From: Candidatus Berkelbacteria bacterium
Lineage (GTDB): Bacteria; Patescibacteriota; UBA1384; DTJR01
Direction of reading: 5' to 3'
DNA length: 64,000 bases
Assembly: GCA_029865605.1 (NCBI GenBank)
Contig: JAOUGE010000005.1
Span: forward strand, 338 to 64,337
Numbering within the stretch: the first letter of the stretch is position 1; each line of letters opens with the position of its first letter. A program made the translations under genes and the position numbers. Shown here in pieces: positions 1,688-34,782 of the stretch. The notes beneath the pieces are model-generated. The model was not told the origin of the DNA. It saw only the letters and a program-made list of their open reading frames with translations, and made no database searches.

Positions 1688-2452
1688 TTGTCCAGTTGGA
1701 TTATAGTTGTTATATTCGGTCTTGCTTGGGGCTCGTTTCTATCGGTTGTAAAGAACCGTCTCGATAATCTCGGGACGGTTCTTTATACCAGAAGCCATTG
1801 CCCAAAGTGTAAAAGACAGCTAGGAGCGGTTGATCTCATCCCGATTTTGAGTTTTATTCTCCTTCGCGGTCGCTGCCGCTATTGTAAAAAGAGGATAAGC
1901 TGGGAGTATCCGCTGTTTGAAATCTTAAGCCTCATCCTGGCTGTTTTTGTCTATTATAAGTTCGGCTTTAGTCTTGCTTCTGTTGTTTTATTTCTTTCCC
2001 TCTCGGCTTTGCTTGTTTGCTCATTCGTTGATATCCAGAGTCAGGAAGTTGATCTACCTCTCTTTATTTTTGGAATTTTAACAGCGCTTTTTTGGGCTCT
2101 TTTAAGAAACGGAGCTAGTCCTGATGCTTTTAAGGAGCTTTTTTGGGCTGTTGCCGTGGCGGTTGTTGTTCCCCTTGGGCTATATCTTATAAGTCGCGAA
2201 AAGTGGATGGGGTTAGGGGACAGTTTTTTTGCTCTTTGGGTAGGACTTTTATCGGGCTTCCCCCAGGCCGCCTTGGCTATCTTTTTAGCGTTCTTTTTGG
2301 GAGCTATTTTTGGTATAATTGCCTTGGTAATTAAAGGCAAGAGAAAAACATCGAGGGTCGCTTTTGGCCCGTTTATCGGGTTAGGGGGGATAATCGCCCT
2401 CGGTTGGGGCCAACAAATTATTGATTTTTATTTGAGTTTTATTGGTCTTTAA
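1688..2452 (+). CDS. pilD: prepilin peptidase (A24 family, PilD-like), TTG start
   Basis: N-terminal CPKC...CRYC tetracysteine zinc-binding motif typical of PilD, followed by a polytopic membrane domain. Follows the pilin gene. Confidence 0.7.
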   Translation: MSSWIIVVIFGLAWGSFLSVVKNRLDNLGTVLYTRSHCPKCKRQLGAVDLIPILSFILLRGRCRYCKKRISWEYPLFEILSLILAVFVYYKFGFSLASVVLFLSLSALLVCSFVDIQSQEVDLPLFIFGILTALFWALLRNGASPDAFKELFWAVAVAVVVPLGLYLISREKWMGLGDSFFALWVGLLSGFPQAALAIFLAFFLGAIFGIIALVIKGKRKTSRVAFGPFIGLGGIIALGWGQQIIDFYLSFIGL

Positions 2453-2644
2453 ATCTACCCCGTTAAATTAGTTCCAATTCACGGGCATTTAACGGGGCAA
2501 GAGGAGGCCAGGTAGTAGAAATTTGATAAATGCCAAACGCAGCATTTCGGTTCAAAATAAGAAATTTTATAGTCAATTTAATATGGATATGTGAAAGCAT
2601 TTTGCGAAGCAAAATAATCAAATTTTCACTACCCGGGAGGGAAT

Positions 2645-3217
2645 ATGGGAATCAAAAAAAGAAAAGTTAAATCGTTTACTCTAATTGAGCTGCTGATTGT
2701 AATAATTATCGTCGGTATTTTGGCAACTTTTGTCGCAATCAGCCTTGTTAGTTCGAGGGCAAAAGCTAGAGACGACAAAAGATTAGCTGATATTAACTCC
2801 ATTGCTAATGCGATCGATCAGTACTCGACCGAGCATTCAAGGAAATATCCGATCGTAACCGGTGGCGGGCAGGCTGATGAGGACGCCTATTATGTAGTCA
2901 GGGTTTCAAGAAGTACCTTTGTAGACCAGATCGATGACTATCTCAGGCCGGTTCCCGAAGACCCATCGGATAAGGCGGGCTCGGAGGAGTATAGATATAT
3001 TTATGTTGTGAAAGGCGATCGGCTGAAGGCGGCGCTGATAGTTGATAAGATGGAGAAAGGCAGGAGCAAGTGCAATATCCCCTCAAATAACACTTCTGGA
3101 GTGCCCGACACTGTTACGGCCTATATCGATAAAATTGGCGGAACCGTAAACGTTGTTTATGTCGGCTCTATAACACCACCGACAAATCCCAATCCTTGTT
3201 ATTACGTTGAAAGATGA
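2645..3217 (+). CDS. pseudopilin / minor pilin with prepilin-type signal
   Basis: N-terminal FTLIELLIVIIIVGILA prepilin motif. Confidence 0.65.
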   Translation: MGIKKRKVKSFTLIELLIVIIIVGILATFVAISLVSSRAKARDDKRLADINSIANAIDQYSTEHSRKYPIVTGGGQADEDAYYVVRVSRSTFVDQIDDYLRPVPEDPSDKAGSEEYRYIYVVKGDRLKAALIVDKMEKGRSKCNIPSNNTSGVPDTVTAYIDKIGGTVNVVYVGSITPPTNPNPCYYVER

Positions 3218-3693
3218 AGCCAAAATTAAAAGGCCTTACTTTAATTGAACTTTTGATTGCGATTACTGTTTCTTTGATTTTAGTCGTTGCCAGTATCCCG
3301 ATCATTGTTCGCTCAACAGGGAGAGAAGCGCTCCAGGACCAGGCGCGGATCGTAGCTTCTTTTGTCGAAAGGGCAAGAAATTATGCTCTTCATCCCGAAA
3401 ATGAGAATGCCCTAAATTACCGGGTTTATAGGATGAGTGACAATCAGCGGCTAGAAATTGAAAGATGGACTCCGGATGGAACGGGTTATGAGGGCTTTGG
3501 CGAGGAGCTTAAGCTGCCGGACGGTTTTGAGTTTAATGATACTTTCACGTCAATTGTTTTTTACGTGCCCCGTGGCAATTATAATGGGACAAGTGCTACT
3601 CAAGTTGAGATCGAAAAAACTGGCATTAACGGGGGCAAAATCCCGGTTATTATTGAGAGTCCAGGCACAATAAGTATTGGAGAGATCGAATAA
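3214..3693 (+). CDS. pseudopilin (GspH/FimT-like) with prepilin-type signal
   Basis: MKPKLKGLTLIELLIAITVSLIL N-terminus. Overlaps the upstream gene by 4 nt. Confidence 0.6.
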   Translation: MKPKLKGLTLIELLIAITVSLILVVASIPIIVRSTGREALQDQARIVASFVERARNYALHPENENALNYRVYRMSDNQRLEIERWTPDGTGYEGFGEELKLPDGFEFNDTFTSIVFYVPRGNYNGTSATQVEIEKTGINGGKIPVIIESPGTISIGEIE

Positions 3694-3703
3694 CAAGTTT
3701 TTT

Positions 3704-4300
3704 ATGAAAAAGTTGAGATCATTCGGCTTAATCGAGGCGGTAATTGCCTCTACGGTAATGGCCCTGATTTTAATTGGGTCAGCCGTTTTGTCTTCCTCAA
3801 CATTAAAGACATCCGTCGTTGAACAAAATTACCATGAGGCGGAGCATATTGCCGACGCGCTTTTGGAGAAAGTTAGATCAGCCAAGGAGAGTGGGCTTGT
3901 TGTTTTTACTAAAAATCAGGACGCGGACCTCGGTAGCAGCGAGCTTTTGTCGGTTGACTGTTTTGCTACCCCAAAGAGGGACGGTGCCAATTGCAAGACG
4001 GCTGGGGCTGGGGGGACCTATAAGGAACCGTTGCCCTATTATAATGGCATGGTGGAAGACGGCGACGGTTATATATTAGTTAAAAACAATTTAAAAATTC
4101 CTTTCAATAGTTCAAATTTTGCCAACGGTTTTTTTAGATGGAAGATGACCGTTACAAGGTCAACTTCTTGCCAAAGCATTGGTGGTGTATCAATTGATAG
4201 CTGGAAGTGCCGTCTTATCCAGGCTGAAATAAGATGGAATCAGCCAACGGGGGAAAAATCTTATCTTATCCGGCAATATTTTACCGATTGGAGCAGATGA
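3704..4300 (+). CDS. minor pilin (PilV/PilW-like); start moved to ATG 3704
   Basis: MKKLRSFGLIEAVIAS prepilin-like N-terminus begins at the internal ATG. The track's TTG at 3677 overlaps the stop of the upstream gene. Confidence 0.55.
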   Translation: MKKLRSFGLIEAVIASTVMALILIGSAVLSSSTLKTSVVEQNYHEAEHIADALLEKVRSAKESGLVVFTKNQDADLGSSELLSVDCFATPKRDGANCKTAGAGGTYKEPLPYYNGMVEDGDGYILVKNNLKIPFNSSNFANGFFRWKMTVTRSTSCQSIGGVSIDSWKCRLIQAEIRWNQPTGEKSYLIRQYFTDWSR

Positions 4301-6466: not shown

Positions 6467-6609
6467 TGGTAGCGGGGGTGGGATTTGGTCACAAGTCGGC
6501 GCGCATATTTTTCTTAAAGAGTGTGCCGCTCGCGACCCCGCCTCATCCCGCCGTGGCGGGACTCCGGCCTTCAAATCCCATCGCTCCCAATTCTCGGCTT
6601 ACGCCGATC
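6467..6609 (-). repeat. conserved structured element after a tRNA 3' end, copy 1 (appended to tRNA-Met)
   Basis: Minus-strand order is antisense T-loop segment GGGATTTGAAGGCCGG, hairpin CCCGCC-ACG-GCGGG, GAGGCGGGGTCGCGA, second hairpin, TTGTGACC, then a 21-nt copy of the tRNA T-loop-to-CCA end (CAAATCCCACCCCCGCTACCA). Confidence 0.8.
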
Positions 6610-7541: not shown

Positions 7542-7659
7542 GGTTGTTTTTTGGTGAAACGGCGGATTCGAAGGCCGCAGCGAGCGAAGGCGAGCGAGGC
7601 GGGGTCGATTGCCGCGCCAGCAGGTGCGGACAAGTGACCGAATCCTGTCGTTGCCACCA
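7542..7659 (+). repeat. conserved structured element after a tRNA 3' end, copy 2
   Basis: Starts GGTTGTTTTTTGGTGAAACGGCGGATTCGAAGGCCG. Contains GAGGCGGGGTCG, hairpin CCGCGCC-AGCA-GGTGCGG and AAGTGACC. Ends with a 25-nt repeat CGAATCCTGTCGTTGCCACCAGGTT of the tRNA 3' end. Confidence 0.8.
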
Positions 7660-22880: not shown

Positions 22881-23129
22881 TTATTGAATACTATTTTTTA
22901 TTTGCTTTTTCAAATCTTCTTTTGGTTTATGTTCTTTGAGCTGTTTCTCTCTTTTGGCAGCGTCTTTTTTACTTAGGTAGCTTTCTAGGTAGACCAATTT
23001 GACAGGCAATTTAGATCTTGTTGATTTAACAAGTCCTTTTTTGTGTCTATTAATCCTGATTTTAACATCGGAGCATGAACCAATATACAGATCTCCGTTT
23101 GCGCATTTTAACGCATAAACTTGGTACAT
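22881..23129 (-). CDS. GIY-YIG nuclease superfamily protein (YhbQ/UPF0213-like); start trimmed to an internal Met to avoid the tRNA overlap
   Basis: MYQVYALKCANGDLYIGSCSDVKIRINRHKKG...KLVYLESYLSKKDAAKREKQLK shows the GIY...YIG...R...E motifs. The track start at 23165 would overlap tRNA-Cys. Confidence 0.55.
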   Translation of the reverse strand: MYQVYALKCANGDLYIGSCSDVKIRINRHKKGLVKSTRSKLPVKLVYLESYLSKKDAAKREKQLKEHKPKEDLKKQIKNSIQ

Positions 23130-23141
23130 AATTTTGGCTTT

Positions 23142-23215
23142 TGGAGGCATCGCCGGGATTTGCACCCGGGTAAACGGTTTTGCAGACCGTTGCCTGACTA
23201 CTCGGCCACGATGCC
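23142..23215 (-). tRNA. tRNA-Cys (GCA)
   Basis: Reverse complement GGCATCG...CGATGCC-T-CCA with anticodon loop CTGCAAA and a short variable loop. The T-loop TGCAAAT is slightly atypical. Confidence 0.65.
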
Positions 23216-23900: not shown

Positions 23901-24039
23901 ACGAGATGGCCTTTAGGCCATTTTTCGTTGGAGCACCCTGCCGAGAATTGAAGGCCGGACCCCGCCACGGCGGGGGAGGCGGGGTCGCGAAATTTACCAG
24001 CAGGTAAATATTTGTGACCAATTCCGCTCACCCGCTCCA
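23901..24039 (+). repeat. conserved structured element after a tRNA 3' end, copy 3
   Basis: Hairpin plus T-tract ATGGCC-TTTA-GGCCATTTTTCG, then GAGAATTGAAGGCCGG (antisense Gly T-loop), CCCCGCC-ACG-GCGGGGG, GAGGCGGGGTCGCGA, AAATTTACC-AGCA-GGTAAATATT, TGTGACC, and a 21-nt repeat CAATTCCGCTCACCCGCTCCA. Confidence 0.85.
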
Positions 24040-24044
24040 GCCAG

Positions 24045-24068
24045 AATCGCCGAAGGCGATTTTTTGTT
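24045..24068 (+). terminator. intrinsic terminator after element copy 3
   Basis: AATCGCC-GAAG-GCGATT followed by TTTTTGTTT. Confidence 0.6.
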
Positions 24069-24156
24069 TGTTAATTCTTGACTTATTTTGAAATAAAAAG
24101 TACTATTTTCTCTTAACCCATGAAGTCCCCGAAGATGGGTTCTTTATGGGTGATAT

Positions 24157-25038
24157 TTGACATTACATTCCGCGCCGCCCGCAGGGCGGCGCACCAAGGA
24201 GGAACCGCTTTATGATTTACCCCGCCGAGGCGGACGGCCGCCGGTCAACGACGAGTGGCGAGTGGAGTACTGCGACGGCCTATGCTGCGGCGTCTCGGCG
24301 ACATACGAGTTGCACTGGGCACTGACCGGTAACTGCTTCGATATCGAAGCCGAGATCGTCCGCCACGTCGCTCTAGCAGACAAGAGCGACGAGGGGTGGG
24401 TAACCGTTCTGACTCGTACCGACGAGATCAGAGCATTGGCGGACAGCTCCGTCGCGCAGCTTGAACACATCAACCCGCTGGCGCCGGTCGGCTCGCGCGT
24501 CATCCTTCCGTGGCCGCGGGTTGACTGCGTCATCGACCGCGACGGAACGACGTCGCCTTACGCTAACCCCTTCGTCGAAGTCACGGGGGAAGCCCTGGCA
24601 GGCCGCAAGAAGGAGCACTGCTTCTTCACCCATATCCGGCCTGACGATGATGGCTGGGTGGCCGCGGCGCTTCAGGGTCCCAAGGGAACGGGGATCGGCG
24701 TGCGCTCCAAGTACGACAAGCGGTTGCCCTTCTTCTCTGTCTGGTTCTCCCGCACGGGCAAGAAGGGCGTGGCGGCAATCGGCCTTGAGCCGGGTCCACT
24801 GCCGCTCGGCGCGGCAGAGACAGATCGACTCGAGATGAGGGCTGTCCTCGAGGGGGGAGAGGAGATGACGCGCATGACTGAACTCTACTTCCTCGATACT
24901 TCCGAGAGGATGACAACCTTCCTCGAGAGCAACGGGATGAGCGCTGGCTCGCTTCCCAAGCAGTTCGAGAAGATCGGCACCGACAAGAAGGACTGGCCGA
25001 CGCTCTGCAGGGCGGCTGGTATCAACGGCAAGCGCTAG
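24157..25038 (+). CDS. hypothetical protein in a GC-rich island (start uncertain; the track start is TTG)
   Basis: Open frame of 293 aa at about 60%+ GC. A separate 38-aa ORF with a perfect AAGGAGG ribosome-binding site starts at 24203 in another frame (see findings). Confidence 0.4.
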   Translation: MTLHSAPPAGRRTKEEPLYDLPRRGGRPPVNDEWRVEYCDGLCCGVSATYELHWALTGNCFDIEAEIVRHVALADKSDEGWVTVLTRTDEIRALADSSVAQLEHINPLAPVGSRVILPWPRVDCVIDRDGTTSPYANPFVEVTGEALAGRKKEHCFFTHIRPDDDGWVAAALQGPKGTGIGVRSKYDKRLPFFSVWFSRTGKKGVAAIGLEPGPLPLGAAETDRLEMRAVLEGGEEMTRMTELYFLDTSERMTTFLESNGMSAGSLPKQFEKIGTDKKDWPTLCRAAGINGKR

Positions 25039-25090
25039 GGCGGCCGAAGGCCGCCCCGGATCTGATCACATCTGTGCGGGGGAACTCACT

Positions 25091-25246
25091 ATGCCGCGTA
25101 AGCCCCGCAAGGTTATCGAGGAAGAAAATGCGTGCGAGCGCCGCTCGCGCCCCAGGCGCTACGTCTCGGCCCGCTCTTATGTCCATCATAAGGATTGGGA
25201 AGACGGAGGCCGACGTAAGGCCAAAGGAAAGGAGCATTCCTGGTGA
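25091..25246 (+). CDS. possible small basic protein (51 aa) inside the GC-rich island, not in the ORF track
   Basis: ATG 25091 to TGA 25246 encodes MPRKPRKVIEEENACERRSRPRRYVSARSY.... It ends just before a strong terminator. The overlapping track ORF 25074..25304 reads through that terminator. Confidence 0.2.
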   Translation: MPRKPRKVIEEENACERRSRPRRYVSARSYVHHKDWEDGGRRKAKGKEHSW

Positions 25247-25261
25247 GCACACGCTCACCCC

Positions 25262-25305
25262 CACGGGCCCCGCCATTGGCGGGGCCCGAGTTGTTTTTGT
25301 TTAAT
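25262..25305 (+). terminator. intrinsic terminator closing the GC-rich island
   Basis: GGGCCCCGCC-ATTG-GCGGGGCCC followed by GAGTTGTTTTTGTTT. Confidence 0.6.
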
Positions 25306-27072: not shown

Positions 27073-27167
27073 GGGCAAGTGGTGAAATGGTATACACGCT
27101 AGCTTCAGGAGCTAGTGACCGCAAGGCCGTGGCTTCGCGAGGGTGGAACTCGCGAAAATACCTTGTA
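27073..27167 (+). pseudogene. tRNA-Leu-like pseudogene (degenerate T-loop and acceptor 3' strand)
   Basis: The 5' two-thirds is closely similar to the tRNA-Leu genes here (D-arm GTGGTGAAATGGTATACAC, anticodon loop TTCAGGA). The T-loop reads GGTGGAA and the 3' strand cannot pair with the 5' acceptor strand. Confidence 0.4.
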
Positions 27168-27172
27168 TTTGT

Positions 27173-27258
27173 GCCGAAGTGGTGGAATGGTAGACACGCA
27201 GCGTTCAGAGCGCTGTGAGCGCAAGCTCGTGAGAGTTCAAATCTCTCCTTCGGCACCA
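27173..27258 (+). tRNA. tRNA-Leu (CAG), type II with a long variable arm
   Basis: GCCGAAG paired with CTTCGGC, anticodon stem-loop CAGCG-TTCAGAG-CGCTG, variable arm, T-arm GAGAGTTCAAATCTCTC, ACCA. Confidence 0.8.
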
Positions 27259-27341
27259 TCTATAATTTCGAATCCGCAACATTAGTTTTTCGTTCCACCC
27301 GAAAAACGCTTGCCCACCAGAATTAAACTTTTAACTGATTT

Positions 27342-28178
27342 ATGGATCGAATTCCCTTTACCGTTACAATGCGCAAGGACCTTTTAAAAAGGGTCGATTC
27401 TTTAGTTGATGGCACGCAAATCAGAAATCGTTCCCACGCTCTTGAATCAATTGTTTCGAGCCATTTCAGGCCGAAGATTAAAAAAGCTCTTATCTTAGCC
27501 GGCGGCGAAGGGATTAAGATAAAGCCATTCACCTATGAGCTCCCCAAGACAATGCTGCCAGTTAAGGGACGGCCGATTTTTGAATACATCCTCGACCTGC
27601 TTCAGAAACAGGAGGTAAAAGAAATTTATGTAGCCATCGGCCATTTGGGCGGGAAAATCAAGGGGCAGTTTGGCGACGGGGCAAAGTACTCTGTGGATAT
27701 TACCTATCTTGAAGAAAAGGGTAGTCTCGGCACCGGCGGTGCCTTAAAGGCCGCTCTTCCCAAGATGGGCGACGACCCTTTCTTGATGATTTGGGGCGAT
27801 GAGTTGATTGATATTGATCTTGGGGACATGATTGATTTTCATATGACGCAAAAGCCGGTTATGACAATTGCCTTGACTTCTGTTTCTGACCCGACGGGCT
27901 ATGGGGCGGTCAAGCTAAGACGGGATATGGTTGTTGAACATATTGAGAAACCGGCAAAAACCAAGGATGTATCTCATCTTGTCAGTGCCGGCGTTCATGT
28001 TGTTGATCCGAGAATTGCCAGTTTTTTGCCTCGAAAGAAAACTTTTATGCTGGAAAGCGACATTATGTCTCAGCTGACTAAAAAAGGCCAGATCCGAGGT
28101 TATCTTTTTGAAGGACAGTGGTTTGATGTAGGAACTCCCGAAATTTACCAACGGGCAATAAGAGAGTGGAGAGGGTAA
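27342..28178 (+). CDS. sugar-phosphate nucleotidyltransferase with an N-terminal ribbon-helix-helix (CopG-like) domain
   Basis: Residues 1-45 FTVTMRKDLLKRVDSLV...RSHALESIV match the ribbon-helix-helix pattern. Then KALILAGGEGIKIKP...LPKTMLPVKGRP gives the nucleotidyltransferase G-loop. Confidence 0.6.
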   Translation: MDRIPFTVTMRKDLLKRVDSLVDGTQIRNRSHALESIVSSHFRPKIKKALILAGGEGIKIKPFTYELPKTMLPVKGRPIFEYILDLLQKQEVKEIYVAIGHLGGKIKGQFGDGAKYSVDITYLEEKGSLGTGGALKAALPKMGDDPFLMIWGDELIDIDLGDMIDFHMTQKPVMTIALTSVSDPTGYGAVKLRRDMVVEHIEKPAKTKDVSHLVSAGVHVVDPRIASFLPRKKTFMLESDIMSQLTKKGQIRGYLFEGQWFDVGTPEIYQRAIREWRG

Positions 28179-28282
28179 ATTCTGTATCTTGTATTTTGTA
28201 TCAGGTATCTAGTATTGAACGGTGAATACATGATACATGCTACTTGATACATGATACTTTTTCTTGTACAATCTAACCTGAT

Positions 28283-28368
28283 GCCGAGGTGGTGGAATTG
28301 GTATACACGATAGCTTGAGGAGCTATGCTCGCAAGAGCGTGCAGGTTCGAGTCCTGTCCTCGGCACCA
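28283..28368 (+). tRNA. tRNA-Leu (GAG), type II
   Basis: GCCGAGG paired with CCTCGGC, anticodon loop CTTGAGGA, variable arm, T-arm CAGGTTCGAGTCCTG, ACCA. Confidence 0.85.
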
Positions 28369-28523
28369 AGCAGAACTGCCCTTGTGGCAGTTTTTTGCTT
28401 GGTGCCCCGTGGACTCGAAGGCCGGACCTCGCCACGGCGGGGGTTCGAGGGGTGGCACCTGAGAAGGGTCGCGAGGCCCGCCAGCAGGCGGGAACTTGTG
28501 ACCGAGTCCTGTCCTCGGCACCA
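28369..28523 (+). repeat. conserved structured element after a tRNA 3' end, copy 4
   Basis: Hairpin plus T-tract ACTGCC-CTTG-TGGCAGTTTTTTG, then GGACTCGAAGGCCGG (antisense T-loop), CTCGCC-ACG-GCGGGG, a variant core with an insert (GAGG...GGGTCGCGA), CCCGCC-AGCA-GGCGGG, CTTGTGACC, and a 21-nt repeat CGAGTCCTGTCCTCGGCACCA. Confidence 0.85.
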
Positions 28524-28528
28524 CAAAG

Positions 28529-28552
28529 ATCCCGCTTTAGCGGGGTTTTTCT
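28529..28552 (+). terminator. intrinsic terminator after element copy 4
   Basis: CCCGC-TTTA-GCGGG followed by GTTTTTC. Confidence 0.6.
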
Positions 28553-28616
28553 ATGTATTAGGGTTGAAAAATTTTGTGAAAAAAGCTAAAATTACTCCAG
28601 AAGGTCGATAACTTAA

Positions 28617-28868
28617 ATGGAGATGAATATGGCAGACACAAAAATTGGTGTGATAACACACTACTTTGACAAAATTGGGGTTGGGATCATCAAGCTTGAG
28701 GCGCCGCTAAAGAAAGGCGAAACAATTAAGATTGGCGAGGTGGAACAAGTAGTTGATTCAATGCAGGTTGACCATAAGGATATTGATGAAGGCCAACCGG
28801 GTCAGGAAGTCGGCGTCAAAGTCAGCGCCAAGGTTCGCGAAGGCGAGGAAGTTTATAAGGTAGAGTAG
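28617..28868 (+). CDS. small beta-barrel protein resembling EF-Tu/IF2 domain 2 (function unknown)
   Basis: 83 aa. KIGVITHYFDKIGVGIIKLEAPLKKGETIKIGE...VGVKV resembles a translation-factor beta-barrel domain. Weak. Confidence 0.3.
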   Translation: MEMNMADTKIGVITHYFDKIGVGIIKLEAPLKKGETIKIGEVEQVVDSMQVDHKDIDEGQPGQEVGVKVSAKVREGEEVYKVE

Positions 28869-28930
28869 GGGGCGGCTAGCTTGGGCTAGAAGCTCATCGG
28901 CCTTTGGCTGACAGCGGGATTTTTAGATGT

Positions 28931-29005
28931 GGGCGGTTAGCTCAACGGTAGAGCATTTGGTTTACATCCAAGGGGTTAAAGGTTCGAATCCTTTACCGCC
29001 CACCA
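28931..29005 (+). tRNA. tRNA-Val (TAC)
   Basis: GGGCGGT paired with ACCGCCC, anticodon loop TTTACAT, T-arm AAGGTTCGAATCCTT, ACCA. Confidence 0.85.
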
Positions 29006-29030
29006 TCGGCTTGCATGAATGGTTTGAAAC

Positions 29031-29106
29031 GCCGGGGTAGCTCAGTGGTTAGAGCACTGGTCTGAAAAACCAGGTGTCGACAGTTCGATTCTGTCCCCCG
29101 GCACCA
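29031..29106 (+). tRNA. tRNA-Phe (GAA)
   Basis: GCCGGGG paired with CCCCGGC, anticodon stem-loop CTGGT-CTGAAAA-ACCAG, T-arm CGACAGTTCGATTCTGTC, ACCA. Confidence 0.85.
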
Positions 29107-29240
29107 GGCGGAATTGCGAAGCAATTATTTGACTGGTGCGGCGAACCGAGAATCGAAGGCCGGAGCGCGACGGCGCGAGGCGGGGTCGAGCGCAAAATCA
29201 GCAGATTTTGACGGGTGACCGATTCTGTCCCCCGGCACCA
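29107..29240 (+). repeat. conserved structured element after a tRNA 3' end, copy 5 (after tRNA-Phe)
   Basis: Hairpin AATTGC-GAA-GCAATT, then GAGAATCGAAGGCCGG (antisense Phe T-loop), CGCG-ACGG-CGCG, GAGGCGGGGTCGAGCG, CAAAATC-AGCA-GATTTTG, GGGTGACC, and a 21-nt repeat CGATTCTGTCCCCCGGCACCA. Confidence 0.85.
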
Positions 29241-29443
29241 TCGCGTATGTCCTCATCTGCCAGAAAAGGTAGATGTGGAGACGCGATTTGACGGGGGCGG
29301 CAGGTCGATAACCTGAGAACCTGCCGACAAGAATCGAAACGCGCAGGCTCGACGGAGCCGAGCGGGGGTCGCGAGGCCCGCCAGCAGGCGGGAACTTGTG
29401 ACCGATTTCCTGCCTGCCGGCAGGCAGGTGTCCCTCTGCACCA
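29241..29443 (+). repeat. conserved structured element, copy 6, in tandem after copy 5, with a non-cognate tail
   Basis: Contains AGAATCGAA (antisense Phe T-loop again), GAGCGGGGGTCGCGAGGCCCGCC-AGCA-GGCGGGAACTTGTGACC (identical over 36 nt to copy 4). It ends in a palindrome CCTGCCTGCC/GGCAGGCAGG plus GTGTCCCTCTGCACCA, which is not the Phe 3' end. Confidence 0.7.
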
Positions 29444-29469
29444 CTTACCCCGCATGAGCGGGGTTCAAT

Positions 29470-29943
29470 GTGAAATTAAAAATGCAAAACGTCACGGCTT
29501 TTTTGGGTGAAATATTCAGCTTTTTCAAAGAAAAAGTTTTTGATTTTGAGAAGTTTTTTAGTTGGGGTTATCTTAATGCGTCAGCGTCCACAATTCTCCG
29601 GTATTGGATAGTTTACGTCGTGATTTTTGCTCTTTTAATAGTGGTCGGACTATTTATTCAGTTTTATTTTGGGCGCAAAACCCTGCCGAAATTCAGAAAA
29701 AAATTTTATAAGCGTTTGGGCGACTTTCTCGTTTACCCGCCGCTTGTTTATCTTTTTCTTATCACTGTAAGAAGGGCCGGGCTGGAAGGCTTGAATAAGA
29801 GGATTCTTCCAGTTTCTCTTGCGCTTATATGGTTGATTTGGCTGGGCTTTCTGGTATACTACAGAATAGCCGTTGTTTCAAAACTCCAAAAGATGTATTT
29901 GGAACAGCGGAGAAAGGAAAAATATATAAGAAATGGTAGTTAA
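29470..29943 (+). CDS. hypothetical polytopic membrane protein
   Basis: Four hydrophobic helices. 157 aa. Confidence 0.35.
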   Translation: MKLKMQNVTAFLGEIFSFFKEKVFDFEKFFSWGYLNASASTILRYWIVYVVIFALLIVVGLFIQFYFGRKTLPKFRKKFYKRLGDFLVYPPLVYLFLITVRRAGLEGLNKRILPVSLALIWLIWLGFLVYYRIAVVSKLQKMYLEQRRKEKYIRNGS

Positions 29944-34663: not shown

Positions 34664-34782
34664 GGTTGTTTTTTGGTGAACAGGGGGGATTCGAAAGCCG
34701 GACCAGCCCAGGGCTGGGAGACGGGGTCGCACAAAAATTCAGCAGAATTTTATGAGTGACCGAATCCCACCTCGCCCACCAG
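34664..34782 (+). repeat. conserved structured element after a tRNA 3' end, copy 7
   Basis: Starts GGTTGTTTTTTGGTGAA, as copy 2 does. Then GGGGGATTCGAAAGCCGG (antisense T-loop), CAGCC-CAG-GGCTG, GAGACGGGGTCGC, AAAAATTC-AGCA-GAATTTT, GAGTGACC, and a 30-nt repeat CGAATCCCACCTCGCCCACCAGGTTGTTTT. Confidence 0.85.

Follow-up and report, generated by a model that had tools for sequence, protein, structure and literature searches.

A tRNA-Phe-cognate unit of a Patescibacteria-wide family as an old resident of a tRNA-Phe locus with tandem units in a Candidatus Berkelbacteria genome

Several described genetic systems find their sites by base pairing, including group II introns through contacts of exon- and intron-binding sites (EBS-IBS), group I introns through an internal guide and the P1 helix, IS200/IS605 elements through guide tetranucleotides, and IS110 elements through bridge RNAs. 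Class IIC group II introns insert after terminator hairpins. Among structured RNAs associated with tRNAs, theta ribozymes sit directly 3′ of tRNAs, and the UGGN bulge of the T-box pairs with the NCCA end of a tRNA. The small repeat families REP/BIME, pneumococcal BOX, Neisseria Correia and Rickettsia RPE are short and modular, but we know of none that carries antisense and sense copies of the 3′ end of the neighbouring gene, and of none that is tied almost exclusively to, and co-oriented with, tRNA and transfer-messenger RNA (tmRNA) 3′ ends. In Patescibacteria, group I introns have been described at anticodon-loop position 35/36 of tRNA-Asn and tRNA-Asp (PMC13011429). The present study concerns a 64-kb stretch of contig JAOUGE010000005.1 of a Candidatus Berkelbacteria bacterium, hereafter the window, where tRNA-Phe is followed by two tandem units, 29107-29240 and 29241-29443, of the same four-part anatomy. 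Such a unit is an element of approximately 100-200 nt in tRNA or tmRNA transcription units, comprising a linker hairpin, an antisense arm, a core and a sense tail. The second of them, 29241-29443, is a full, tRNA-Phe-cognate unit of a Patescibacteria-wide family and an old resident of its locus.

The second unit behind tRNA-Phe

The tRNA-Phe (GAA) gene occupies positions 29031-29106 of the forward strand, as does all of the array that follows it (ARAGORN; Rfam tRNA, 74.7 bits). Its segment from the T loop to CCA (29086-29106) is copied in sense and in antisense by both units. The first unit, termed copy 5 in an earlier note on this DNA, scores 77.3 bits with the covariance model of the family and includes a linker hairpin (29107-29133), an antisense arm (29134-29157), junction J1, hairpin P1 and junction J2 (29158-29182), hairpin P2 (29183-29220) and a tail that is a perfect 21-nt copy of tRNA-Phe (29220-29240). 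The earlier note placed another unit directly after this 3′-end copy, and a complete one is found there, its core (29337-29403) scoring 65.8 bits (E = 1.2e-12) with the covariance model R1 built from 65 family cores. The labels "copy 5" and "P2" used in that note fit the anatomy found.

The second unit begins with a linker hairpin predicted by RNAfold (29241-29292), its last bases being ATTTGAC. The arm antisense to the tRNA-Phe 3′ segment (29293-29338) consists of GGGGGCGGC, a hairpin inserted at 29299-29325 (loop TCGATAACCTGAGAA) and GACAAGAATCGAA. It ends with AGAATCGAA at 29330-29338, the sequence antisense to the tRNA-Phe T loop that had been recognised before. J1 (ACGCGCA), P1 (GGCTC-GACG-GAGCC) and J2 (GAGCGG) follow at 29339-29365, where the 3-bp lower stem CGC:GCG in place of the common GCC:GGC constitutes a compensatory change, and then P2 (29366-29403) and the tail (29403-29443). 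Thus, J1 (N-XXX-G-(G/C)-A), P1, J2 (G-A-YYY-G) and P2 (GGGTCG ... GTGACC), the features of family membership, are all present, with the arm directly 5′ of the core and a sense copy from C56 directly 3′ of P2. In the minimum-free-energy fold of 29031-29443, the second-unit arm is predicted to pair with the tail of the first unit.

Orthologous tRNA loci were compared in five syntenic relatives, which were fetched through the neighbouring S1 gene (S1 proteins 69-76% identical to that of the window); the contigs L246-L248 end before the tRNA locus. The comparison of presence, absence and copy number at the tRNA-Phe locus, which the earlier note had pointed to, yielded a patchwork of filled and empty sites. 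The window has two units there. L250, where the tRNA-Phe 3′ end is as in the window, has one, with the arm hairpin loop GATAACTTGAGAA and a near-same P2, and L241 also has one, with the same arm hairpin, the rare junctions GCGCGCA and GAGCGG seen in the second unit and a P2 differing by one compensatory pair. A single "canonical" unit behind tRNA-Phe in L251/L252 resembles copy 5, and the design TGGTGC-N8-GAGAATCGAA of the L251 unit is common to both. No unit lies behind tRNA-Phe in L244/L245 or L249, and L244 lacks units at all four shared tRNAs. The inserted arm hairpin (loop GATAACYTGARAA) occurs in both the L241 and the L250 unit, the P2 hairpins are near-identical with paired compensatory differences, and the linkers of both align with that of the second unit. 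The occurrence of second-unit features in the single units of L241 and L250 indicates that the second unit is orthologous to them and long-standing at the locus. The L241 unit has a tail whose last 14 nt match its own tRNA-Phe perfectly, and the sequence beyond this tail aligns with that immediately following tRNA-Phe in L249, which is empty, so that a filled site equals an empty site plus one unit and one copy of the repeat. As to the tandem itself, either copy 5 was gained later, or it arose by unequal crossover through the 21-nt repeat, or both units could be ancestral and differentially lost by precise deletion.

It is extremely improbable that the tandem represents an assembly mis-join across the repeated tRNA-Phe 3′ end. 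Two identical 21-nt repeats (29086-29106 and 29220-29240) and related units could mislead an assembler, and the exact tandem was found in no independent assembly, the contig of the closest relative, L240, ending before the locus. Yet the repeats are much shorter than one read, the two units differ throughout (22/38 identity in P2, with linker, J1/J2 and P1 also different), and in independent assemblies an orthologue of each unit type follows tRNA-Phe directly. Tandem arrays also occur in many unrelated contigs.

The tail of the second unit is made up of CGATT(T), a 20-nt palindrome and a slightly decayed tRNA-Phe 3′ end (CGATTT ... TGTCCCTCTGCACCA), being broken after nucleotide 61. Without the palindrome it reads CGATT(T)-TGTCCCTCTGCACCA, as compared to CGATTC-TGTCCCCCGGCACCA in tRNA-Phe. 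The earlier note considered it a non-cognate tail from a foreign tRNA donor, with a tRNA-like end matching no tRNA in the window. The terminal 16-mer GTGTCCCTCTGCACCA has no exact tRNA match in the window; when up to three mismatches are allowed, it matches there only the tRNA-Phe 3′ end and its copy. The 15-nt TGTCCCTCTGCACCA is identical at 13/15 positions to the tRNA-Phe end of the window and at 14/15 both to the 3′ end of L251/L252 tRNA-Phe and to the tail of the L250 orthologue. This removes the ground for a missing match and for a foreign donor: the tail is a decayed tRNA-Phe end, and its G-to-T change (CTGCACCA) is common to the L250 orthologue, whose tail CGATATCTGTCCCCCTGCACCA carries it without the palindrome. 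In the acceptor strand, the tail has CCTCTGC, the tRNA-Phe of relatives CCTCGGC and the tRNA-Phe of the window CCCCGGC. The tail is nearer to the tRNA-Phe of relatives than to the present one, which indicates that an earlier state of the same tRNA has been preserved. By these alignments, the tail is a fossil of the 3′ end of tRNA-Phe itself, with two substitutions and an inserted palindromic hairpin, and no tRNA ending in ...CCTCTGCACCA is expected in this genome beyond the history of tRNA-Phe. Tails of this kind are datable fossils of earlier tRNA sequence, and the idea of a foreign tRNA donor is corrected accordingly.

The palindrome CCTGCCTGCCGGCAGGCAGG (29409-29428), described previously as perfect and 20 nt long, is exactly so, with 0 such occurrences expected by chance. 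The identical 20-mer was met once more among all fetched sequence, in the tail of the tRNA-Leu(CAG) unit of L251 (388-407), and in both tails it lies exactly between tRNA positions 61 and 62. AT-rich lineages have another recurrent tail insert (..GTGTACTCAC..), located 2-3 bases earlier in the tail. The recurrence of the palindrome at the same tail position in another genome points to a recurrent module, and the recurrent tail inserts indicate that tail hairpins are a family trait and not noise. An insert of about 13 nt with GT(G/A)TACTCA(C/T), the counterpart of the 20-nt palindrome of the window, was also observed directly after CGA (positions 58/59) in the tails of L033, L048, L126, L128, L132 and L150.

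The unit behind tRNA-Leu(GAG) (28369-28523, forward strand) shares P2 with the second tRNA-Phe unit. The 36-nt identity reported between them is exact (0 expected in shuffles) and extends to 40 nt, 28466-28505 being identical to 29366-29405 (P2 and the first two tail bases). P2 identity is 38/38 for this pair and 20-29/38 for other pairs in the window; identical P2 was found in 0/9 other same-contig unit pairs, a sample supporting only the statement that such identity is rare. By reading of the alignments, J1 and P1 of the tRNA-Leu(GAG) unit are 27/28 identical to those of the tRNA-Gly unit, and the region from P1 to J2 contains an extra insert. A promoter-like site precedes tRNA-Leu(GAG), and a strong terminator (28525-28550) follows the tail of its unit. 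No unit is present behind tRNA-Leu(GAG) in the three relatives examined at this site (L244/L245, L241 and L251/L252). The P2 of tRNA-Phe type, the J1 and P1 near to the tRNA-Gly type and the absence from relatives indicate a lineage-specific mosaic. Since the L250 and L241 orthologues of the second tRNA-Phe unit possess almost the same P2, this P2 is ancestral at tRNA-Phe. It is likely, from the sequences compared, that the tRNA-Phe unit was the donor and the tRNA-Leu(GAG) unit the recipient of P2. The earlier proposal of recent copying or gene conversion in a dynamic family therefore stands as regards dynamics and exchange of parts, evident in the patchwork loci and the mosaic, but not as regards copying into the second tRNA-Phe unit, where P2 is ancestral.

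Fold, distribution and copies of the family

The linker hairpin of the units is often terminator-like. The arm is antisense to the stretch of the adjacent tRNA that runs from C56 in the T loop up to the 3′ end; it begins with 5′-UGGN, complementary to the NCCA end including the discriminator. In the core, a junction "AA" and a stem of 3 bp are joined by a kink-turn-like (K-turn-like) internal loop, G-(G/C)-A / G-A; P1 (4-5 bp) is capped by a GNCG loop, and P2 (14 bp) carries a bulged A. The internal loop is invariant, and its strands are ordered as in a kink-turn, although its bulge is 1 nt long. In P2, 9 pairs demonstrate 6-39 double-sided compensatory changes among 65 sequences and one G.U is invariant; G.U is far commoner than A.C, which indicates that the fold is specific to one strand. 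Antisense arm and tail covary at T-loop positions 57, 59, 62 and 63, with a pairing of 5.95/8 vs 4.99 for shuffled partners (maximum 5.30). Among units with a tail that has departed from the tRNA sequence, 17 have an arm pairing better with the tRNA and 3 an arm pairing better with the tail (two of them with a self-contained P0), while in 2 the pairing is equal. The arm thus tracks the tRNA rather than the diverged tail, and the tail is the least constrained part.

On its left side, the direct repeat formed by tRNA and tail always starts in the T loop (C56), and on the right it stops at differing points at or past the tRNA end; its length varies within 5-45 nt overall and 20-45 nt for type-A units. 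Arm and tail make an imperfect inverted repeat of ~20 nt around the core, its sequence being that of the neighbouring tRNA. Where the tRNA genes of a genome do not encode CCA, it is missing from the tail as well, and the repeat runs on into the genomic trailer; this rules out the tail as a retro-copy of mature tRNA. In some units, a terminator immediately following N73 is extended into a palindrome that forms P0, accompanied by a short repeat, CACAAA. Self-contained units (GTGAG, a local P0 hairpin, GCAAG, core, ...GTGAC) have neither target duplication nor terminal inverted repeats and nest in other units. Tandem arrays behind one tRNA recur in other contigs, and nested and truncated copies also occur. 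An exact self-contained unit of 90 nt was observed inside uvrC in L042 (3420-3510), in frame and stop-free; it separates the conserved Cys and RPC motifs, whose usual spacing of 9 residues returns once GTGAG...GTGAC is taken out. It is the only copy found within an open reading frame (ORF).

Among the matches listed, 105 cores have a tRNA within 350 nt; 103 of these are co-oriented with it and 90 lie downstream, and at least 17 amino-acid families are represented. Two units follow tmRNA, and others are located in rRNA operon spacers. The units after the tRNA-like 3′ end of tmRNA, in L126 and L224, have a cognate arm (Rfam tmRNA, 134-136 bits). Co-orientation seems to be broken in L232, where a unit lies immediately upstream of the 5S rRNA gene but on the other strand; the 23S rRNA gene of L232 contains at least three group I introns (Rfam), with a fourth match downstream. 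A loose genome scan with variable gaps returned mostly chance matches in high-GC genomes, the genuine ones, ~9 loci among the matches listed, all belonging to the Candidate Phyla Radiation (CPR: Parcubacteria, Nomurabacteria, Saccharibacteria, Adlerbacteria and Paceibacterota). A stricter pattern gave at least 119 metagenome loci and no match in viral contigs. No family of Rfam 15 matches the units of the window or of 20 further unit loci at gathering scores, and in 27100-29600 only tRNAs and chance-level Rfam matches appear at E <= 10. The family was not found in the searched literature, where the nearest entries are the anticodon-loop group I introns of Patescibacteria tRNAs, which are different from the units, and it could not be placed in any described class. 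The family itself is a larger result than the question of the tail.

Exactly seven family copies were found in the window with the covariance model, filters off. They lie behind six of the nine tRNA genes: Met (-), Met (+), Gly, Leu(GAG), Phe (two units) and Leu(TAA). The same search found no unit behind tRNA-Cys, tRNA-Leu(CAG) or tRNA-Val. The copy behind tRNA-Met on the reverse strand (6468-6609; 44.6 bits) has a long P2 without the CAGCAG loop. The remaining copies, all on the forward strand, follow the other tRNA-Met (7542-7659), tRNA-Gly (23901-24039) and tRNA-Leu(TAA) (34664-34781); the last has a direct repeat of 29-30 nt reaching into the trailer. The units behind tRNA-Met (+) and tRNA-Leu(TAA) begin with an identical 17-nt stretch, GGTTGTTTTTTGGTGAA (7542-7565 and 34664-34687; 23 nt when the common CCACCA end of the tRNAs is included), while their cores are different throughout. 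GGTTGTTTT occurs again after the tail of the tRNA-Leu(TAA) unit and is not present in the tRNA-Leu(TAA) trailers of relatives.

Several further observations concern units elsewhere. In L127 (1560-2284, reverse strand), two identical tandem units follow one tRNA; their tails differ from the tRNA in the T loop and the arm matches the tRNA. In L168, a 25-nt motif is repeated three times within P1. Other core types with the same arm-core-tail layout behind tRNAs were met in L145, L150, L184/L236, L209, L228 and L188, one with GGTGTACTG followed by a hairpin with a ..TGTAA.. loop and another with a CAGCGGAGC... core, which suggests several core types in one superfamily. The very stable DNA mini-hairpin GCGAAGC, considered as a possible sign of a single-stranded-DNA stage, is only 2.7-fold enriched at linker tips, on five cases, which does not decide the matter.

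Other genes near the tRNAs were also noted. A gene for a small GIY-YIG protein (22881-23165, reverse strand; Pfam GIY-YIG, E = 4e-14) has its start ~12 nt after tRNA-Cys (23142-23215), and in L249 a GIY-YIG-like ORF, recognised by eye, and a partial duplicate of the tRNA-Phe 5′ end lie between tRNA-Val and tRNA-Phe (3840-4250). Besides the units, such protein-coding genes may form a second kind of mobile gene associated with tRNAs. Directly after the tRNA-Gly unit, 24000-25300 has a GC content of 0.54-0.65 vs ~0.39-0.50 in neighbouring stretches and contains an ORF with a weak DUF4432 match; this GC-rich stretch may be foreign DNA. The tRNA-Phe gene of L241 (5045-5324), missed by ARAGORN, carries an insert of ~220 nt in the anticodon loop, which is read as a putative group I intron. 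About 1 kb from the tRNA-Val/tRNA-Phe locus of L249 lies a diversity-generating retroelement gene pair (bAvd and RVT_1; 1952-3373), so a reverse transcriptase exists in this lineage.

Proposed mechanism and alternatives

The best explanation, taken as a whole, joins the identity of the unit to a selfish-element mechanism and is held at slightly better than even confidence. Its first part, that 29241-29443 is a tRNA-Phe-cognate unit of the family with orthologues, a decayed tail and an ancestral P2, is on its own held with high confidence. The mechanism is tentative and falls somewhat short of even. The units would be non-autonomous elements, self-propagating or hitch-hiking in highly transcribed stable-RNA units. 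A single-stranded form would have to fold, most likely the tRNA read-through transcript, and the antisense arm would serve as a guide keeping or placing the unit by the paired tRNA segment. The direct repeats of 20-45 nt (tRNA 3′ end and tail) would drive precise loss, tandem duplication and accretion by unequal recombination, and the exact tandem observed would result if an allele carrying the canonical unit crossed over with one of the second-unit type. Close inverted and direct repeats would permit templated correction and exchange of modules between copies.

A bolder form of this explanation, doubtful at present, is an undescribed nucleic-acid-guided element or RNA with a three-way-junction core of ~65 nt, a guide arm re-templated for each tRNA or tmRNA and a spare copy of the segment. 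Its folded transcript would spread or act, for example by a new small ribozyme activity or through a protein binding the K-turn-like motif. If so, the reduced genomes of Patescibacteria would offer, in their tRNA 3′ ends, landing sites or substrates that can be programmed.

Several points weigh against the selfish-element explanation or temper its evidence. The L251 design, being like that of copy 5, agrees both with a younger copy 5 and with two ancestral units that were differentially lost. Orthologues persist at an S1 identity of 69-76% with compensatory changes, a pattern that purifying selection on an RNA useful to the host would also produce. The units have no linked transposase, integrase or reverse transcriptase; among the ten window ORFs scanned, the only matches were a GIY-YIG and an RNase H-like protein. 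P1, counted by anchoring on J1 and J2 because MAFFT misaligned it, and the 3-bp stem show 4-6 pair types each; for this stem and the first three pairs of P1, the sequences counted had been filtered for pairing there. The collection scans demanded the invariant P2 ends and the CAGCAG loop, and the conservation of those bases is overstated. Finally, the terminator adjacent to tRNA-Leu(GAG) looks orthologous to the terminator of the empty site of L244, which makes the insert an arm, core, tail and second terminator, an arrangement that simple insertion at a repeat does not predict.

The units might instead be host-useful structured RNAs, co-transcribed with the tRNA and acting in cis or as stable small RNAs, possibly as a module of 3′-end processing or stability or as a protein scaffold presenting a double-stranded mimic of the segment from T loop to CCA; their patchy distribution would then mean that they are dispensable and become lost by recombination. 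In keeping with this are the strand-specific covariation, which includes G.U pairs, the nearly complete co-orientation with tRNA and tmRNA genes inside promoter-to-terminator units, the orthologues kept with compensatory changes over deep divergence, and the optional hairpins at fixed permissive sites, as in functional RNAs. It is nevertheless unlikely, for the same tRNA is filled or empty among close relatives (with L244 empty throughout), copies occur in tandem, nested, truncated and within an ORF, tails decay, and downstream genes have no common theme. A derivative of a single-stranded-DNA transposon, of the palindrome-associated IS200/IS605 type (PATE) or of the REP/RAYT type, served in trans by an HUH/Y1 transposase and inserted without target duplication beside a sequence recognised by base pairing, seems quite unlikely. 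No Y1 or TnpB gene was detected in the ten scanned window ORFs or in the Pfam-annotated relatives, peel-and-paste transposition does not generate the direct repeat of 20-45 nt that type-A units have, and the K-turn-like loop and conserved three-way junction are more typical of RNA. That self-contained units lack target duplication and terminal inverted repeats and nest in other units, that hairpins stand at or near both ends and that the fold is strand-specific would nonetheless suit such an element. The GC skew of the forward strand is positive, and co-orientation could also follow the replication strand, but the 6468-6609 copy lies on the reverse strand together with its tRNA.

It is improbable that the unit is a small RNA with catalytic or guide activity, be it a new ribozyme that cleaves itself or splices with the arm as internal guide, or the guide RNA of a nucleic-acid-guided protein whose target is GGTT plus the sequence from T loop to 3′ end. 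The layout is suggestive, with a scaffold followed by a ~21-nt 3′ tail matching the target, GGTT preceding the target in every tRNA, a guide arm covarying with the target, and P0 having the topology of a group I intron P1 helix (upstream flank, loop, internal guide); the uvrC insertion in a conserved motif, where removal restores the 9-residue spacing, agrees with it as well. Against this, no known ribozyme family is matched even at E <= 10, invariant unpaired nucleotides are few, and the three-way junction is nested, with no HDV-like double pseudoknot. Splicing is also unneeded, as a complete tRNA always precedes the unit and the sole in-ORF copy is in frame and stop-free; deletion of the unit rescued a split tRNA in 0/25 loci without an ARAGORN-found adjacent tRNA, and a nuclease-active guide would hit the tRNA genes of the cell itself. 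Very improbable, too, is a miniature integrative element resembling a cis-mobilisable element (CIME), in which a tyrosine integrase crosses over in the T loop, the tail is the displaced tRNA 3′ end (attR) and arrays grow by accretion. It would account for the direct repeat with its left edge fixed at C56 and its variable right edge, the use of both tRNA and tmRNA genes as targets, the tandem arrays with a repeat after each unit and the decay of the distal tail. However, neither a double-stranded circle nor a normal attP fits into 100-200 bp, a separate attP identity would be needed for each of at least 17 tRNA families, free stem covariation signifies a single-stranded fold and not protein-binding duplex repeats, the cognate antisense arm is left unexplained, and no integrase is adjacent.

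Although abundant in a major bacterial radiation, the family has no entry in Rfam and was not met in the searched literature. If the arm truly guides placement or action, the unit would be a very small, protein-free module programmable for tRNA 3′ ends, with a bearing on the choice of tRNA genes by mobile elements, on tRNA maturation in reduced genomes and possibly on guide-based tools. A conservative reading already has consequences for annotation, because the units yield spurious ORFs and pseudo-tRNA 3′ ends. On that reading they also offer markers at strain level and a clean natural setting in which repeats mediate gain, loss and the exchange of modules.

Comparison with known systems

Several known classes were compared with the units directly. 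An HDV-like or theta ribozyme was rejected, since the covarying 3-bp stem between arm and P1 makes the predicted fold a simple three-way junction and no Rfam match was obtained. A hammerhead ribozyme was discarded because the junction strands are AA(R), G(G) and zero nucleotides as compared with the required CUGAUGA and GAAA. A T-box riboswitch was excluded by the absence of an Rfam match and by unrelated downstream genes, only the UGGN:NCCA complementarity being common. Nor are the units obligatory tRNA introns, as a complete tRNA precedes them and their deletion gave a junction tRNA in 0/25 loci and only in three controls. An integron attC, with its R boxes RYYYAAC ... GTTRRRY, was rejected by inspection, the arm ending in ...TCGAA and not ...AAC and the tail beginning with CGAAT. 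In comparison with miniature inverted-repeat transposable elements, the units have a variable direct repeat of 5-45 nt and an imperfect arm/tail inverted repeat of ~20 nt, and the self-contained units have neither. As to IS200/IS605, self-contained units have hairpins and no duplication, and a transposase was not seen in the 10 window ORFs and the annotated relatives, a search that did not extend to whole genomes. As to CIMEs, the repeat pattern is present, the units are 100-200 bp long and no integrase is adjacent.

The units are similar to REP/BIME, BOX, Correia and RPE elements in being short, non-coding, multicopy, modular and patchy between strains, in having a fold conserved over sequence, and in occasional in-frame insertion into a protein gene (here uvrC) and presence at stable-RNA genes. 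They differ from these families in that their core sequence and fold match no Rfam family. With integrative elements of tRNA and tmRNA genes and CIMEs, they share the direct repeat from T loop to 3′ end, the use of tmRNA, tandem arrays separated by repeats and the decay of the displaced copy. They differ from them in the size of 100-200 bp, the lack of an integrase, the single-strand stem covariation, the cognate antisense arm and the association with at least 17 tRNA families.

Like theta ribozymes and T-boxes, the units are structured RNAs immediately downstream of a tRNA, with an arm starting with 5′-UGGN. In contrast to theta ribozymes and T-boxes, their fold is nested, they have no Rfam match and their downstream genes are unrelated to aminoacyl-tRNA synthesis; unlike in the T-box, the arm in the predicted fold pairs with ~20 nt of the tRNA-derived tail and not with NCCA alone. 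The systems that find their sites by base pairing resemble the units in having an internal segment complementary to, and covarying with, the flanking target, in a location directly after terminator-like hairpins and, for self-contained units, in the absence of target duplication. The units differ from these systems in having no group I or group II catalytic domain (no Rfam match, core of ~65 nt), no adjacent recombinase or transposase gene, and an additional sense copy of the target.

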